Position numbers and translations under genes: made by a program
From: Candidatus Iainarchaeum sp.
Lineage (GTDB): Archaea > Iainarchaeota > Iainarchaeia > Iainarchaeales > JAAZKV01
Reading direction: 5' to 3'
DNA length: 64,000 nucleotides
Assembly: GCA_026397015.1 (NCBI GenBank)
Contig: JAPLVR010000005.1
Span: forward strand, 57,231-121,230
Shown: positions 24,308 to 62,613 of the stretch, one piece after another
Numbering within the stretch: the stretch's first letter is position 1
Layout: each line of letters begins with the position of its first letter
The notes under the pieces: generated by a model
The model's database searches: none
The model's input: only the letters and a program-made list of their open reading frames with translations
What the model was told of the DNA's origin: nothing

Positions 24308-24335
24308 CAGCCTTTTGGCAAAAGGCTGGCGAAAA
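24308..24335 (+). repeat. Copy of the CAGCCTTTT-N3-AAAAGGCTG-GCG-AAAA palindrome family
   Basis: cagccttttggcaaaaggctggcgaaaa; reverse complement of the copies at 57038 and 62414. Confidence 0.85.
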
Positions 24336-24421
24336 CCGCCGCCTTCAGGCATCGGATGAAGCTTGTTGGCTTCTGTCCTTAAACCAACAGAAGCCGCACA
24401 CTTTAGTGCGCGGTAATTCAC
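24331..24421 (+). mobile_element. Miniature non-autonomous IS200/IS605-like element (PATE-like)
   Basis: Left hairpin ccgccgccttcaggcatcgg; right hairpin gaagccgcacac-ttta-gtgcgcggtaattcac ending in TCAC. Confidence 0.55.
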
Positions 24422-57006: not shown

Positions 57007-57037
57007 AAAATCACCAATTTTTTTAAATTCGCCATTT

Positions 57038-57069
57038 TTTTCGCCAGCCTTTTTTCTAAAAAGGCTGTG
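57038..57069. repeat. Palindrome-family copy next to the tRNA-Leu 3' end
   Basis: ttttcgccagccttttttctaaaaaggctgtg. Confidence 0.85.
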
Positions 57070-57070
57070 A

Positions 57071-57212
57071 TGCAGGGGAAGAGATTCGAACTCTTGAAGG
57101 CACTAAGCCACTGGATAACTCAAACCCTTTCACTTTCGGCGGAGTTTTTCGCCGACCTTTTTACGAAAAGGCCGCTTGAGTCCAGCGCATTTGACCGCTT
57201 TGCTACCCCTGC
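57071..57212 (-). tRNA. tRNA-Leu(CAA) with a 58-nt intron at 37/38 (57117-57174)
   Basis: GCAGGGG/CCCCTGC acceptor stem, CTGGA-CTCAAG|A-TCCAG, long variable arm, GTTCGAATC; BHB central helix CTCA/TGAG. Confidence 0.93.
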
Positions 57213-57254
57213 TTTGCGCACATTTTGTGACAATAAGTAACGATTTGGGGAATG

Positions 57255-57920
57255 CTAATAAAAACCTTGCGAGCGCCACAGATAGAATTTGTCCAAGTGT
57301 TTTTTGTTTTTCGGGCGGATTGTTGCAAAGAACTTTTTTGCGTTTTCCTTGCCCTCAAGCCTGAGCGCGTATGGTGCATAATTTCCGTTGTAAGGCCGCT
57401 CTTTGTAGATGTTAAACTTAAGGTCTTGAATAAAAAGTATTTGTTGAATTTGTTCGGCAAGTTTTTGTGAGACTGTTTTAAACTGTATTACTGGTCTGTG
57501 GCGTTTTTGTTTTTGCCATTTGCTCGCATTGAAGTTGTAAGATTTTTTGAAATAGATGCATCCGTCAGTGTCAAACAATCCCCTAATAAAACTTGTATGC
57601 AGTTGCGGGTCAGAAACGATGCTTGGTGAGACAGTTACTTTGTTGCATTTTTTTTCTATTGGCATTCCGGATGAGATAATTTTTTCAGTAACTGCCTTTT
57701 TTCCAACACAAATTCCATAAGTGCCCCAATATGAAAAACTTTTTGGCGAAACATTGATTTGAAATACTTTTTTGAATAAGAATTTAATTCGCGCGTCATA
57801 ATATTCTTTTTCGTCTTTTGGGTTGCCTGTGATAAAAAGTGAAACTCCCGTGCTGCCTTTGCTCATCCAGCCGTCGCCGGCAAAAGCTCCGAGTAACTCC
57901 GCAAAGTACTTGCTCTCCAT
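57255..57920 (-). CDS. Free-standing two-motif LAGLIDADG endonuclease
   Basis: AELLGAFAGDG and FIRGLFDTDG; no intein splice motifs. Confidence 0.9.
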   Translation of the reverse strand: MESKYFAELLGAFAGDGWMSKGSTGVSLFITGNPKDEKEYYDARIKFLFKKVFQINVSPKSFSYWGTYGICVGKKAVTEKIISSGMPIEKKCNKVTVSPSIVSDPQLHTSFIRGLFDTDGCIYFKKSYNFNASKWQKQKRHRPVIQFKTVSQKLAEQIQQILFIQDLKFNIYKERPYNGNYAPYALRLEGKENAKKFFATIRPKNKKHLDKFYLWRSQGFY

Positions 57921-58017
57921 AAAAAAATGTGGTTTGCTGCGCATAAATACCTTTCGAGAGTGCCATGCCTGTCAACATCATTATGGCGCCAAAAAATAGT
58001 GAACATTTACTGGACAT

Positions 58018-58608
58018 TTATTGCTGCCGTTTGAACGCAAAAGGAATCTCTTTCGCCTTTAAGTCGAGGCTCTTAATTAATCGGCTGAATTCTTCGTAAT
58101 ATTCTTTTTTGTGAATTATTGACAACGTTAACATTTTTGTTTTGCCGCTTTCTTCATAAGAAACTTGAATTGTGATTTCTCTCATCGTTCCAAAAAAAGG
58201 CTTGCATTCCTCAATTTTTTCCGGGAAAGCTTTTTCCATGGCGTGCCAGCCTAACACAATTCCAATTATTTGTGAATAAGAAATTTTTTGTTCAGTATCT
58301 TTAACCAGAAAGAGAAAGTTTGGATAAACATAGCCAATTTCGTCTTGCCCAAAAATTATTTTGTTCCTGTAATGCCCCCAAAAAGCATAAAATAGAACAT
58401 ATCCGCTAAAAAAAATCAGAAAATAAAATACGACCCAAATCGCAAAATTCATGCCGTCGATAGTGCTTCCTGCAAAGCCAGCCGCTGTAAAAATAAATCC
58501 TACAAGACAAACCAAAAGAATTACGAAACCTGGGATGCCTGCGACCAGCAAGAGCAGCCAAACCCCATCCTTCCAGAAATTGGTTTTGTAAACTCTTCCA
58601 GAATCCAT
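58018..58608 (-). CDS. Membrane protein (two TMs plus soluble domain)
   Basis: Two hydrophobic helices. Confidence 0.6.
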   Translation of the reverse strand: MDSGRVYKTNFWKDGVWLLLLVAGIPGFVILLVCLVGFIFTAAGFAGSTIDGMNFAIWVVFYFLIFFSGYVLFYAFWGHYRNKIIFGQDEIGYVYPNFLFLVKDTEQKISYSQIIGIVLGWHAMEKAFPEKIEECKPFFGTMREITIQVSYEESGKTKMLTLSIIHKKEYYEEFSRLIKSLDLKAKEIPFAFKRQQ

Positions 58609-58675
58609 TTTTAACGCTTCATGAATTATGAAATGATTGTCAAATAAAATAATTCCAAATTGATAACAATTAATT

Positions 58676-59104
58676 TTATTCAAATTCAAGCAAATCGTTG
58701 TATTTTATGTTCTGGACGCCTTTTGCTCTTACAAAAATAGTTCCTCCCCTATTTTCTTCTATCTCATCTACTTTTTTGCTTCCTACTCTTAGCTCCGTAA
58801 TTCTTATTTCGCCTTTGCCGATTTCGGACTTCATCCCTTTTTTCAGGGTGCCGGACTCAACCATTCCCGAAACCATCAGTGTGTCTCCTACCTCGTACTT
58901 CCCATCTACCCTGAAGACGCACTGTCCGGAGCTTTTTTTTGAATTTGAAAAATATTTTTCGTCGTCAACCTTTCTAAGGCTTATATTGTCAATTGTTTTC
59001 GCACGGCTCTCGTTTTCCTTTGCAGCCGTTTTTTTGTGGTTCGGGATGCAGACGCCCAGCGGCACGCTTTCCTTTTTCCTTTCTCCGATTCCGAAAATTC
59101 CCAT
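58676..59104 (-). CDS. Stand-alone EF-Tu domain-II-like beta-barrel protein
   Basis: FRVDG.Y.VG....VSG.VESGTLK.G. Confidence 0.65.
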   Translation of the reverse strand: MGIFGIGERKKESVPLGVCIPNHKKTAAKENESRAKTIDNISLRKVDDEKYFSNSKKSSGQCVFRVDGKYEVGDTLMVSGMVESGTLKKGMKSEIGKGEIRITELRVGSKKVDEIEENRGGTIFVRAKGVQNIKYNDLLEFE

Positions 59105-59207
59105 CTAACAAGTTATTGAAGGGAAATAAATAAAAACTGCTTTTTCTCCTTCCTGAGGGGTAGAGAAACCCTTTAATAATAATAAAGGGAAATATATACA
59201 GTTTTGC

Positions 59208-62075
59208 ATGAAACTAGGGATTTTTTTTGGTTTTTTGGTTCTGCTCGTGCTGGCAAATTTGGTGTTTGCGGCGGATTCCAACGATGTTTTGATATCTGAT
59301 GTGAATGTTTCGCCCGCCGCGCTTTATGCCTCAAAAAACGACCAAACGGTTACAATCGATGTCAATGCCGGCAATTTTACCGATGGCTCGCTTGACATGA
59401 ATGTTCTCTTGTTTTATAATGCCGCCTTCGCAGATTCAAATTCGGTTTTGATTGATGTAAACACCTACAAAATAGTGCAATTTACGATGGTTATTTCCGG
59501 AGGCACATACGGGAGTCAGACAATTTTGGCTTCCCTGAACCCGGTTGAAAATGAATCTAATGTGGCTGACAATAATTATTCTGAAGTTGTTTCATTTGAA
59601 AAAATAGATGTGAATGTTTCGTCCGTTTCGCCTGCTGTCGCATCCGGTGCGTTGAGAAAAGGCCGGCGCGCAGAATTTAGTGTAACAGCCATTAACAGCG
59701 GAACTTCTGCAAGAGATGTAAATGTACTTTTCTATTCAAACGGAATCCTCGCGGATTCAAATTCCATTTTGGTTGCTTCAGGCCAGTCCAAAGTTTTTAC
59801 TTTCACAAAAATTTTTTCTGATTTCAATAATGACCTCAACTTTGTTGTCATTCCTGATTTACATGAGTATGAAACCAATGATAATAATTATTATTTGCGC
59901 TACGTTGTCCTGTCGGACCAGAATGATGCCAAAATAACAGGGGTTTCCTTCCTTAACAGCAGATACTCCAACAGACAGCTGAAAGACACAAATTTTTTGA
60001 TAGCTGTCACCGTTGCGAATATTGGGTCCGGCAATTTTAACAGCGATTTAAATGTAAGGCTTTATGTTGACGGGAATTATTCCGATTCGAATACAATTTC
60101 AATCCGTCCGGGCGATTCTAATGTTGTGTACATTACAAAAAACTTTTCAACGGTCGGAACATATGACTTTACTTTGAGCATCGCCCCTTTATCGGATGAA
60201 ACGAGCCTCTCGGACAACAATTCTTCGGCCGTTTTTGTTATTGACGGCAACATGGCAATCCTTCACGCTGTTTCATTTTCTGCAGGCGTTTATCCTGACA
60301 CCAATCAAAGAATTGATTTTAACGCAGGCAACTATGGCCCCACCGCCAATTTAATCCTGCGTCTTTTCAACAAAGACACTAACGCGCTTCTTGATACGGA
60401 AACGGTCTCGATGGGCAAGAATGATAATAACTGGTTGAGCCTTTACACGGGATTTTTGTCTACGAACGGGGTAAACCATTTTACCGCATCGATTGGCAAT
60501 CTTGCCAACGAATATATCTATGATAACAATTTGAACTTCAATATAACAGTTGGAAGCATTTATTCGGGCGATGTAAACCACAGCAATCCGACCAATAATC
60601 CCGGCAGTGGAGACCAAAATAACTTCACGCCCGGAACGGTTGAATCAAATTCAAAAACTGCCACAGTTGCCGCTGATTTGAATGCAGTTTCCGCCTTGGA
60701 AAGTTATTACAGCTCCGCCGAACTGGAAGAGGCAAAATCAAATACGGCTGATGCGAGTTTCACACGAGTCATTGTCAACCTTGCCACTACAAGTTCCACT
60801 GGAAGCGTTACGTATAAAACAAAAATAAAGGTCCACATAAACAAGGCTTTTTCATCTAGTGTAAAAGAATTGAAGGTCGTTGAAATTATACCAAAAACAA
60901 TTGCTTCAAATTCGAGCAAAATAAGTTCCGATATGAACTTCAAGGTTCTCAAAAGCGACCCGATACTAGAGTTTACTCTTTCCCCGAGCCAGGATGTAGT
61001 GTATTATATTGATTCAAATGTAGACACCAACGCGATAAGCGATTTTAATTCGCCGATTATTATGAAAATCACCCTTCAAGAGCAAACCCTGACAGATGAT
61101 GGGGATGCAGACGTTCAAATCGGCGATACTAATAAAGATTCAACTGACCAGAACAATTTAACTGGTTTGGCGGGAATTCTTTCAAAGCTCGGCATCGGGG
61201 GCAGTGCAAATATTGATTTGATTTCAAAGATCGGTTTGTTTGTCGTCCTTATTATTGCCGCGATTTTTGTTGTTTTCAGAATAGCTTCAGAAAAGAAAAA
61301 GAAAGCTCAGGGCATGTCCTCAATCACAATGACCAAATCAAAAATGGAACTCCCTAAATTGGGTGCCAATTGGAGCGGCCTGCCGCCCCTTCCTGCCAAG
61401 CAAATTCCATTACAGGAAACTTCGAACCAATCTCAAAAGCCTGAAATCGGACAACAAAAAACCCCTCTTTCAAAACCTTTTGTCTGGAAGCCTTCGGCTG
61501 AAAAGAAAAGCATTTTTGAATCGTTAAAGTCAAAGCTCTCTTCGATTTCAGTTCCGAAAATGGCCGTTCCAACAGTTCAGGCGCAGCAGCCCCAGTTTTC
61601 GGCGCAGCAGCCGCAGCCGGTTGCGTTGCAAATAGGCAAGATTGCCGAAACCGCGCTGGACAACAGCCCGAGTTCAGGAATTCCTGAGGAGTTCAGCCAG
61701 TGTCTGGACGCGATTGCCATTGCCGAGGCAAAACTTAATTCAATCGGAACTGTTTTTTCAAGAAAGATGATTTGCGAATCCTATATTGACGCGAATAACG
61801 CGCAAAAGGAAAGAACAAAAATAATAATTCAGGTCAAAAAATCTTTTTTGAAAGAAACGAAATCCCTGAATACCATTGAGGCGATTCCAAAGCAAATACT
61901 GGCAGATATCTCAAAATTTAGGTCAGATTCCGCTTCAAAGTTTATCGGGGAAAATGTTGTTGAATTTACTATTGGCATTGATGATGACATCGTTTATTAC
62001 ATCGATGAAAATGTCGGCGTGAACAAAATAATTCTGTTCAAGTCGCCACTCATAACAAAAATAAACAGTTCATGA
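59208..62075 (+). CDS. Large surface protein: CARDB-like repeats, TM helix, long cytoplasmic tail
   Basis: Signal peptide, four modules ending E....DNN, TM followed by KKKK, Q/P-rich linker. Confidence 0.8.
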   Translation: MKLGIFFGFLVLLVLANLVFAADSNDVLISDVNVSPAALYASKNDQTVTIDVNAGNFTDGSLDMNVLLFYNAAFADSNSVLIDVNTYKIVQFTMVISGGTYGSQTILASLNPVENESNVADNNYSEVVSFEKIDVNVSSVSPAVASGALRKGRRAEFSVTAINSGTSARDVNVLFYSNGILADSNSILVASGQSKVFTFTKIFSDFNNDLNFVVIPDLHEYETNDNNYYLRYVVLSDQNDAKITGVSFLNSRYSNRQLKDTNFLIAVTVANIGSGNFNSDLNVRLYVDGNYSDSNTISIRPGDSNVVYITKNFSTVGTYDFTLSIAPLSDETSLSDNNSSAVFVIDGNMAILHAVSFSAGVYPDTNQRIDFNAGNYGPTANLILRLFNKDTNALLDTETVSMGKNDNNWLSLYTGFLSTNGVNHFTASIGNLANEYIYDNNLNFNITVGSIYSGDVNHSNPTNNPGSGDQNNFTPGTVESNSKTATVAADLNAVSALESYYSSAELEEAKSNTADASFTRVIVNLATTSSTGSVTYKTKIKVHINKAFSSSVKELKVVEIIPKTIASNSSKISSDMNFKVLKSDPILEFTLSPSQDVVYYIDSNVDTNAISDFNSPIIMKITLQEQTLTDDGDADVQIGDTNKDSTDQNNLTGLAGILSKLGIGGSANIDLISKIGLFVVLIIAAIFVVFRIASEKKKKAQGMSSITMTKSKMELPKLGANWSGLPPLPAKQIPLQETSNQSQKPEIGQQKTPLSKPFVWKPSAEKKSIFESLKSKLSSISVPKMAVPTVQAQQPQFSAQQPQPVALQIGKIAETALDNSPSSGIPEEFSQCLDAIAIAEAKLNSIGTVFSRKMICESYIDANNAQKERTKIIIQVKKSFLKETKSLNTIEAIPKQILADISKFRSDSASKFIGENVVEFTIGIDDDIVYYIDENVGVNKIILFKSPLITKINSS

Positions 62076-62087
62076 AGAGGTGTTTTT

Positions 62088-62273
62088 GTGAGCGTTCCAA
62101 TAATTATGAAAACCGGTGTTTTTACTTTAATTGTTTGCCTGATTCTTGCCTTTGCGGCGCTAATTTATGGAAAAGTTGAAGTTTTCGTTTATTCCGCCCT
62201 CATAGTTATTATTTTCTTTCTGGTGCTTGATACCTTTGAAAGGGAAGCCGTTCGTTTGGGAAAGAAAGTTTAA
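62088..62273 (+). CDS. Small two-TM protein
   Basis: GAGGTG RBS, hydrophobic helices. Confidence 0.55.
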   Translation: MSVPIIMKTGVFTLIVCLILAFAALIYGKVEVFVYSALIVIIFFLVLDTFEREAVRLGKKV

Positions 62274-62413
62274 ACCCTTCATTTTCCAAAAAAGCCATCT
62301 TTTTAAATTTCACCTGCGTTAATTTTATTGGAGTTTGCCAAGGGCAAGCTTCATCGAGCATCAGCGAAGATGATGCTTTTTGCAAGTCTTTGAAAAAGGT
62401 TGAGACGAAATAG

Positions 62414-62446
62414 TTTTTCGCCAGCCTTTTTTCGGAAAAAGGCTGT
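62414..62446. repeat. Palindrome-family copy next to the tRNA-Ser 5' end
   Basis: tttttcgccagccttttttcggaaaaaggctgt. Confidence 0.85.
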
Positions 62447-62613
62447 GCTGGGATGGCAGAGTGGTTAAATGCGGCAGCCTGCTAAACTTTTAACAAAAGT
62501 TTAATCAAAAATGCCCCCCTTGGGGGCGTAAACTTTTGGAAAAGTTTAATCAAAAAAATTTGCGGCGAGCTGTTGCCCTACCGGGCGCCCGAGTTCAAAT
62601 CTCGGTCCCAGCG
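62447..62613 (+). tRNA. tRNA-Ser(GCT) with an 83-nt intron at 37/38 (62485-62567)
   Basis: GCTGGGA/TCCCAGC acceptor stem, G73, GCAGC-CTGCTA|A-GCTGT, long variable arm, GTTCAAATC; BHB central helix CTGC/GCGG. Confidence 0.92.

Follow-up and report, generated by a model that had tools for sequence, protein, structure and literature searches.

The stretch of DNA analysed here, called the window below, comprises 64,000 nucleotides (nt) of the genome of a Candidatus Iainarchaeum sp. (contig JAPLVR010000005.1, positions 57,231 to 121,230) and carries two intron-containing tRNA genes, tRNA-Leu(CAA) and tRNA-Ser(GCU), with several copies of a repeat unit of about 30 nt beside and inside them. Positions in the window are its own coordinates, and those elsewhere in the genome (0.9 Mb, six contigs) are prefixed by contig. 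The genome contains an archaeal 16S/23S operon and an archaeal RNase P RNA, and public records titled Candidatus Iainarchaeum also carry the repeat. The unit consists of a hairpin of 9–10 base pairs (bp) followed by a tail, GCG plus an A run. Its consensus reads CAGCC, four to six T, a loop of zero to four bases, four to six A, GGCTG, GCG and four to seven A, the stem being made of five G+C-rich pairs and four to five A-T pairs. A preliminary description of the window, written from the letters alone, had listed six clear copies and stated that five of them touch a tRNA gene; all six are present where it placed them, and five of the six do touch one (Table 1). It had also pointed to a possible degenerate copy ahead of tRNA-Ser, which could not be confirmed, as one arm and the T run alone are kept.

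At tRNA-Leu, the trailer copy begins 3 nt past the discriminator base, and the CGGCC arm of a further copy starts, as had been proposed, at the first base of the intron. At tRNA-Ser, the hairpin of the leader copy stops 1 nt short of the first tRNA base, and the first two bases of intron copy 1 are the last two bases of the exon. The sixth copy, copy A, lies 61 nt past an adenylate kinase-like open reading frame (ORF). A default tRNA scan of the window found no tRNA; aragorn with introns allowed reports 37 tRNA genes in the genome, including the two of the window, and 12 of the 37 have introns, 17–148 nt long. The CCA end is encoded by neither of the two window genes. Two genes are wrongly named by aragorn (C1:177553-177719 and C5:275614-275829): on inspection 'SeC(tca)' is tRNA-Gly(UCC), and 'Ile(tat)', with a 132-nt intron, is tRNA-Leu(UAA). 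In both cases the wrong anticodon was called because the intron shifts it.

Table 1. Copies of the repeat unit, tRNA genes and associated modules in the window, with the sites of the second intron family in the genome
Feature	Position	Strand	Remarks
Copy A	24308-24335	+	CAGCC-T4-GGC-A4-GGCTG-GCG-A4; between convergent ORFs
Three-hairpin module, ~77 nt	24336-24412	+	Directly behind copy A
Trailer copy of tRNA-Leu(CAA)	57035-57067	-	Sense; hairpin 57045-57067, then GCG, A7
tRNA-Leu(CAA)	57071-57212	-	Rfam 46.8 bits; aragorn with introns allowed
tRNA-Leu(CAA) intron, 58 nt	57117-57174	-	After position 37, by inspection
Leu intron copy	57145-57174	-	CGGCC-T4-CGT-A5-GGTCG-GCG-A5
Leader module M1	62351-62373	+	TCATCGAGCATCAGCGAAGATGA; second repeat family of tRNA leaders
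Possible degenerate copy	62377-62402	-	One arm and T run only
Leader copy of tRNA-Ser(GCU)	62414-62445	-	Antisense to the tRNA; tail outward
tRNA-Ser(GCU)	62447-62613	+	Aragorn with introns allowed; unreported by Rfam at gathering score
tRNA-Ser(GCU) intron, 83 nt	62485-62567	+	After position 37
Ser intron copy 1	62483-62511	+	TAAAC-T4-AAC-A4-GTTTA-ATC-A5
Ser intron copy 2	62529-62558	+	TAAAC-T4-GG-A4-GTTTA-ATC-A7
Second intron family, sites in this genome	C2:5062-5227, C5:191849-192022, C6:28304-28483		

The window has five occurrences of the architecture set out in the preliminary description with all five outer pairs formed, where 100 dinucleotide shuffles average 0.03 (maximum 1). The whole genome has 31, where 20 block-wise shuffles average 0.30 (maximum 2), and a widened pattern gives 47 copies against 3.15 in shuffles. 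The dispersed palindromic family proposed in that description, and likened to repetitive extragenic palindromic (REP) elements, is real. The further claim that the stems always pair is nearly right, the exceptions being about eight copies with a family-like 3' arm that contain mismatches. When candidates were anchored on the tail alone and pairing was not required, 41 of 69 were paired at 5/5 positions. Among the fully paired, 24 have CAGCC/GGCTG and 10 have CGGCC/GGCCG, five are singletons in which both arms are changed (CAACC/GGTTG, TAACC/GGTTA, TGGCC/GGCCA, AAGCC/GGCTT and AAACC/GGTTT), and the remaining two pair through a G-T wobble (CAGTC/GGCTG and CGGCC/GGTCG). An alignment of 34 copies has both-sided changes at 4/5 outer pairs; since this set was preselected for pairing, the type of change is informative and the percentage paired is not. 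None of the Rfam families matches the unit, and around the copies only tRNA, rRNA and RNase P RNA matches occur. Literature searches on the subject and on the core sequence turned up no account of the repeat or of its core.

The association with tRNA genes suggested by the window extends to the whole genome. A strict detector finds 43 tailed copies, of which 20 touch tRNA genes, while about 0.7 would be expected from non-coding space (37 genes, two ends and ten positions each, plus 1,087 intron bases, in about 109,500 non-coding bases). Six of these copies are at 3' ends, eight at 5' ends and six in introns. On the 3' side one to three bases, mostly T, separate the discriminator base from the hairpin; on the 5' side the hairpin ends 0–1 base before the first tRNA base, or the last G is common to both; and in introns the stem begins at the second intron base. 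Copies at 3' ends and in introns are all sense and copies at 5' ends all antisense, in 20/20 cases here and 22/22 in the genome of a sister species. Reading outward from the tRNA on either side, one therefore meets hairpin, GCG and A run in this order in 42/42 cases over the two species, and the tail adjoins the tRNA in none of these 42.

Other stable RNA genes harbour the unit too. One full unit lies within the RNase P RNA at the expected site of helix P12 (C6:77066-77094; locus L011:1567-1595), and the RNA that bears it still scores 108.6 bits against the archaeal model. The rRNA operon has two copies, one about 70 nt before the 16S rRNA and one after the spacer tRNA-Ala. Several further copies lie between protein genes in either orientation, one of them with its tail 2 nt past a stop codon. 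Neighbouring copies are direct repeats (C3:207/248, C3:18410/18453, C5:147991/148048 and C5:245754/245795), and the only inverted pairs are those that enclose a gene, either tRNA-Ser(CGA) or tRNA-Arg(UCU).

The genus has one other genome, that of the sister species. Four genomes were looked at closely, and the 41 genomes of the order were covered by a search for the 15-mer core only. The core has 39 copies here, 56 in the sister species, 1–8 in 14 of the 39 further genomes of the order and 0 in the rest, and a reversed-core control gave 0 in all 41 genomes. In the syntenic region of the sister species, where genes are only 65–74% identical, the Leu trailer and intron copies, the Ser leader copy and the first Ser intron copy are kept, and the remaining intron and flank DNA of the two loci is no longer alignable. 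The Leu intron stem has undergone a paired change, CGGCC/GGTCG here against CAGCC/GGCTG there. Across orthologous sites loops differ, and arms and tail are mostly kept. Identity values for arms against distal flanks in the two species were set aside, as the arms were compared out of register and other conserved modules lie in the distal flanks. The Ser leader copy is also retained in another genus (L027), and the distance from its T run to the first tRNA base is 20 nt in one species and 14 nt in the other. Flank copies common to both species stand at tRNA-Cys, Trp, Met, Glu-CUC, Leu-UAG, Ser-CGA, Arg-UCU, Ile and Ala-UGC; flank copies of one species only stand at Lys(CUU), Trp 3', Arg(GCG) 5', Thr(UGU) 5', Pro(CGG) on both sides and Arg(UCG) 3'. 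We also searched the contigs of four DNA runs for variants with and without a copy; they gave only the organism itself at low depth and tRNA-Leu joints of other organisms, and no usable presence/absence variant. A look for RNA runs that contain this DNA returned none.

The two species also differ in their introns. In the sister species, tRNA-Thr(GGU) has a 110-nt intron built of unit copies; the gene has no intron here or in a second genus, and synteny of the locus with tRNA-Met is kept between the two species. The introns of tRNA-Glu(UUC) are unrelated in the two species, and that of the sister species starts with the unit. The second Ser intron copy is whole only here and survives in the sister species as a shortened remnant. 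These three cases bear out the suggestion in the preliminary description that the unit contributes to intron gain and growth. Introns are also present here and absent from the sister species at tRNA-Arg(UCU) and Pro(CGG). In the second genus, the introns of Gly(GCC), Gly(UCC), Glu(CUC) and Gln(CUG) start with a hairpin and GC(G)AAA, the stem letters being different in some of these introns. Two intron families can be told apart. The first has the CGGCC/CAGCC hairpin and occurs in Gly(GCC), Gly(UCC), Leu(CAA) and Leu(UAA); the second has a hairpin of the form TTTTC-T-run/A-run-GAAAA, then GTG.TA...ATCCCAAAAGAAA, and occurs in Thr(CGU), Tyr and Glu(UUC) here (Table 1) and in Ser(GGA) in another family of the order. 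With the second family common to the Thr(CGU), Tyr, Glu(UUC) and Ser introns, related introns therefore occupy unrelated tRNAs.

We also counted hairpins of any sequence and at least 6 bp that lie flush with tRNA ends, for which control windows and shuffles give about 10–16%. In this genome 12/37 tRNA genes have one on the 3' side and 19/37 on the 5' side, in the sister species 17/32 and 18/32, in the second genus 3/25 and 8/25, and in a genome of another family 8/31 and 5/31. Flush hairpins are thus not essential, being near background on the 3' side in the second genus, where controls give about 10%, and only modestly raised elsewhere.

We read the unit as a dispersed, modular palindromic repeat of a DPANN archaeon, similar to the REP elements and bacterial interspersed mosaic elements (BIMEs) of bacteria, which occupies the discarded parts of stable-RNA genes and feeds the growth of introns; in our judgement this reading has about an even chance of being right. 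The unit has the traits of such elements: it is short and palindromic, exists in many copies, combines with mixed modules, has multiplied within a single lineage, differs between sister species through gain and loss, is found nested in another repeat and is tolerated only where its insertion does no harm. It is found mainly in the leaders, trailers and introns of tRNA genes, in the RNase P RNA at P12 and in rRNA spacers, and also in some gaps between protein genes. Copies would spread at the DNA level. As RNA, each would probably form a closed hairpin by folding back on itself, flush against the mature domain. In introns, where the stem appears to begin just behind the 3-nt bulge that holds the 5' splice site, the hairpin could replace the outer helix of the bulge-helix-bulge (BHB) motif. 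Leaders and trailers would be cut away by RNase P and tRNase Z; because leaders, trailers and introns are removed, insertion or duplication of the unit would be cheap, and introns could therefore be seeded or lengthened by it. Copies with runs of five or six T sit inside introns and the RNase P RNA, which are tolerated sites.

Several observations weigh against a purely selfish element. It leaves unexplained the mirrored orientation in 42/42 cases, the near-intact orthologous copies at the Leu and Ser loci amid DNA that can no longer be aligned, and the fact that the same stem letters, and not just the pairing, are found across the order and in bacteria. Orientation, retention and stem constancy suggest selection or sequence-specific recognition. 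In addition, a mobilising enzyme was not found: Y1 transposases, TnpB-type proteins and reverse transcriptases (RVT_1) were searched for and other transposase families were not, in two copy-rich genomes of limited completeness (this one at 85% and the sister species at 88%). The co-occurring HUH/RAYT-like nuclease that the preliminary description proposed to look for did not turn up, PF01797 (Y1) having 0 matches in either of the two, and the idea was rejected. It is present in 4/41 genomes of the order, none of them copy-rich, without relation to copy number, nor was it found in one of the Clostridia genomes, which has 29 copies. Retro-mobility driven by a reverse transcriptase of the host was dropped, as RVT_1 was not found in either copy-rich genome, and so was a TnpB-type partner, no such domain having been found in either. 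Among relatives that have Y1, RVT_1 or TnpB-type genes, their occurrence does not track copy number.

Comparison with known systems shows where the unit is familiar and where it is not. Like bacterial REP sequences, their REPIN doublets and BIMEs, which are palindromes of 20–40 nt present in tens of non-coding copies, form mosaics and often lie between convergent genes, it is a short imperfect palindrome with many extragenic copies (43–47 in 0.9 Mb against 0.3–3.2 in shuffles). It differs from REP/REPIN systems in its archaeal host and in the RAYT (Y1) gene that was not found in the two copy-rich genomes; in neighbours that are mostly direct repeats and not inverted doublets; and in its place within tRNA introns and RNase P RNA, its strict orientation to tRNA ends and its fixed GCG-A tail. 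With regard to miniature inverted-repeat transposable elements (MITEs), a related autonomous element was not found among the Y1, TnpB-type and RVT_1 genes searched, other transposase families lying outside that search. Direct repeats of 9–23 nt that repeat the start of the next gene flank 6/132 copies checked, and they lack the fixed length of a MITE's target-site duplication. Rickettsia palindromic elements and other intragenic MITE-like repeats are likewise small palindromes for which a transposase is not known and which persist where they are tolerated, including within functional genes; the unit here is much shorter, at about 30 nt, and lies in RNA genes and introns and not in-frame in proteins.

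The introns themselves resemble archaeal BHB introns, which EndA cuts, in that they follow position 37 and an EndA gene is present. For those of Leu-CAA, Leu-UAA, Gly-UCC and Ser-GCU, inspection suggests 4 bp of helix separating the anticodon loop from the intron end and, at the 3' site, a bulge of 3 nt. They differ in that, again by inspection, the 5' bulge is backed by a hairpin of the repeat, complete in itself, with a long intron remainder after it in place of a direct passage into the central helix; the predicted fold of Leu(CAA) uses another pairing. In Thermoproteales, according to PMC4090602, near-identical introns in unrelated tRNA genes point to intron gain after speciation, and an intron 'transposition' (Fujishima et al. 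2010, as cited there) is described with its mechanism stated as unknown; for Caldiarchaeum, PMC3293823 proposes intron gain via an integrating element. The two intron families here, recurring in unrelated tRNA genes, are similar to the Thermoproteales case. They differ from it in that the unit is also abundant in leaders, trailers and other RNA genes, in belonging to a DPANN lineage, and in that all introns seen here are at the usual 37/38 position. The abundance of the unit outside introns therefore points to a source of intron sequence.

A role in transcription was considered, in which the unit would be a two-way stop or insulator at gene borders: a polymerase nearing a tRNA from either side would meet the T run of the tail and then that of the hairpin, while the tRNA's own polymerase would meet one T run 5–8 nt past the gene end. 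The outward tail in all 42 cases fits this, a plain T run often occupies the corresponding position at tRNA genes that lack the unit, and copies are flanked by convergent or tandem protein genes here and by convergent genes in Butyricicoccus, besides the one whose tail follows a stop codon by 2 nt. We nevertheless hold such a function doubtful, because the T5–T6 copies inside introns and RNase P RNA would need read-through, leader copies sit between the likely TATA box (70–145 nt upstream) and the tRNA, where they would halt the tRNA's own transcript, and a T-run stop needs neither the hairpin arms nor the GCG. A promoter function, with the T-run/A-run centre serving as a TATA-like box, we consider highly unlikely. 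Some centres are all T/A, like the TATA-type 8-mers enriched in the non-coding DNA of this genome, and a structured 77-nt module lies right behind five copies; but most loops contain G or C, the implied start for leader copies would fall inside the tRNA, tRNAs bearing modules have ordinary TATA-like boxes further upstream, and the distance from T run to tRNA varies, as in the 20 against 14 nt at tRNA-Ser.

The exact position of the copies, 0–3 nt from mature ends or at the second intron base, would also suit a functional RNA module for precursor processing, in which a closed hairpin at each cleavage site delimits the mature domain and, in introns, forms the outer helix of the splice motif, perhaps bound by a protein. 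The Gly(GCC) and Gly(UCC) introns of the second genus, which keep the hairpin and GC(G)AAA under other stem letters, speak for it, as do the retention of copies at orthologous sites and the variable loops beside mostly kept arms and tails. Against it, most tRNAs here and in relatives lack the unit, the predicted minimum-energy fold of pre-tRNA-Leu pairs the intron start differently, the same unit occurs in bacteria far from tRNAs, and the standard enzymes are all present: tRNase Z in 40/41 genomes, and one EndA gene and the RNase P RNA here. There is therefore no hint of an unusual processing pathway, and a missing tRNase Z or RNase P, which might have called for special end signals, was rejected as a cause. 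We regard a processing function as quite improbable.

The unit is not confined to the order. When one genome per prokaryote species was scanned, the full unit turned up at no fewer than 122 loci; among the loci listed, 53 are in archaeal records (by their titles Iainarchaeum, Woesearchaeota, Pacearchaeota, Micrarchaeota, Altiarchaeota and others) and 69 are bacterial, almost all from Clostridia, including an isolate of Butyricicoccus. In the first 80 loci, aragorn places a tRNA within 200 bases in 12/31 archaeal and 0/49 bacterial cases. Five Clostridia genomes have 3–29 copies of the unit core each, and in gut Clostridia (L083-L152, L195-L202) the unit is the centre of an intergenic mosaic repeat of about 250 nt with a variable number of G+C-rich hairpins. 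One Clostridia genome has inverted copies around an alpha-galactosidase gene, tails outward. The inverted pairs in Clostridia were considered as transposon ends and rejected, the enclosed DNA being the non-coding mosaic repeat or the alpha-galactosidase gene, with no transposase. A viral carrier was likewise rejected after 0 matches in 2.9 million viral contigs. The bacterial copies have no Rfam match, even with E allowed up to 1.

Elsewhere, in genomes other than these two, some copies upstream of tRNAs are in sense orientation, and these are not flush with the gene (L032, L087, L079, L141). Their hairpin side adjoins a truncated duplicate of the first 9–16 bases of the tRNA, and the intact tRNA gene follows 15–35 bases beyond the tail; in a Micrarchaeota-labelled record (L091), 23 bases of the start of a protein gene are duplicated likewise. 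In a bolder version of the repeat reading, the unit would be a cross-domain mobile module with no transposase of its own, joined hairpin-first to strand ends that face outward, both where stable-RNA genes begin or end and at 5' splice sites, and serving as raw material for the birth, lengthening and replacement of DPANN tRNA introns. Hairpin-first joining, if true, would account for both the mirrored orientation in 42/42 cases and the truncated tRNA 5' fragments before some copies; we consider this version unlikely.

How archaeal tRNA introns arise is a long-standing question. A unit of about 30 nt that stands beside tRNAs, at intron starts and as the building block of an intron found only in the sister species is a concrete donor sequence, and the pair of genomes allows a site-by-site comparison of intron gain, growth and replacement. 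If the unit is indeed raw material for introns, their origin would be observable between sister species; if it is a mere tolerated passenger, tRNA and intron finders and RNA-family models must still allow for such inserts in DPANN genomes. Its strict orientation and its occurrence in gut Clostridia as well as several DPANN phyla could both be signs of a recognition factor that is conserved, or of a new spreading route. The orientation rule, the comparison of intron gain and replacement in two species, and the count of bacterial holders are new here.

Two further modules accompany the unit. The 77-nt module of three hairpins behind copy A has five copies in the genome, three full and two shortened, each directly behind a hairpin-tail unit (the others at C3:24038, C3:30247, C5:125494 (-) and C5:285067 (-)), and the five units that carry it lie 32–73 nt after protein genes. 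It has both-sided changes in 3/22 predicted pairs and matches no Rfam family; a small RNA and an element of 3' untranslated regions are both conceivable. The leader module M1 (e.g. CTATCGAGCATCAGCGAAGATAG) has a stem of 4–6 bp that covaries between copies, and besides tRNA-Ser(GCU) it occurs in the leaders of tRNA-Cys, Trp, Met, Glu(CUC), Ile, Val, Asn, Tyr and Ala(UGC), as well as in tRNA leaders of another genus. It is found in both orientations and starts approximately where a transcript from the upstream TATA-like box would be expected to start; at Ser(CGA), Lys and Arg(GCG) it is split by inserted hairpins. The TATA-like box lies 70–145 nt upstream of tRNAs with repeat modules, against about 31–46 nt for those without. 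An identity of the tail and M1 with K-turns or box C/D elements was dropped, the letters giving no support. Finally, at C1:150990-151990 (-), beside tRNA-Gly(CCC), a stretch of about 0.9 kb with a small ORF lies between two partial tRNA 3' ends (...CCCGGCGGCTGCA). Behind the distal tRNA fragment come T-T and two hairpin-tail units, which looks like what is left of an integration in which an old tRNA end was displaced along with its trailer copy.

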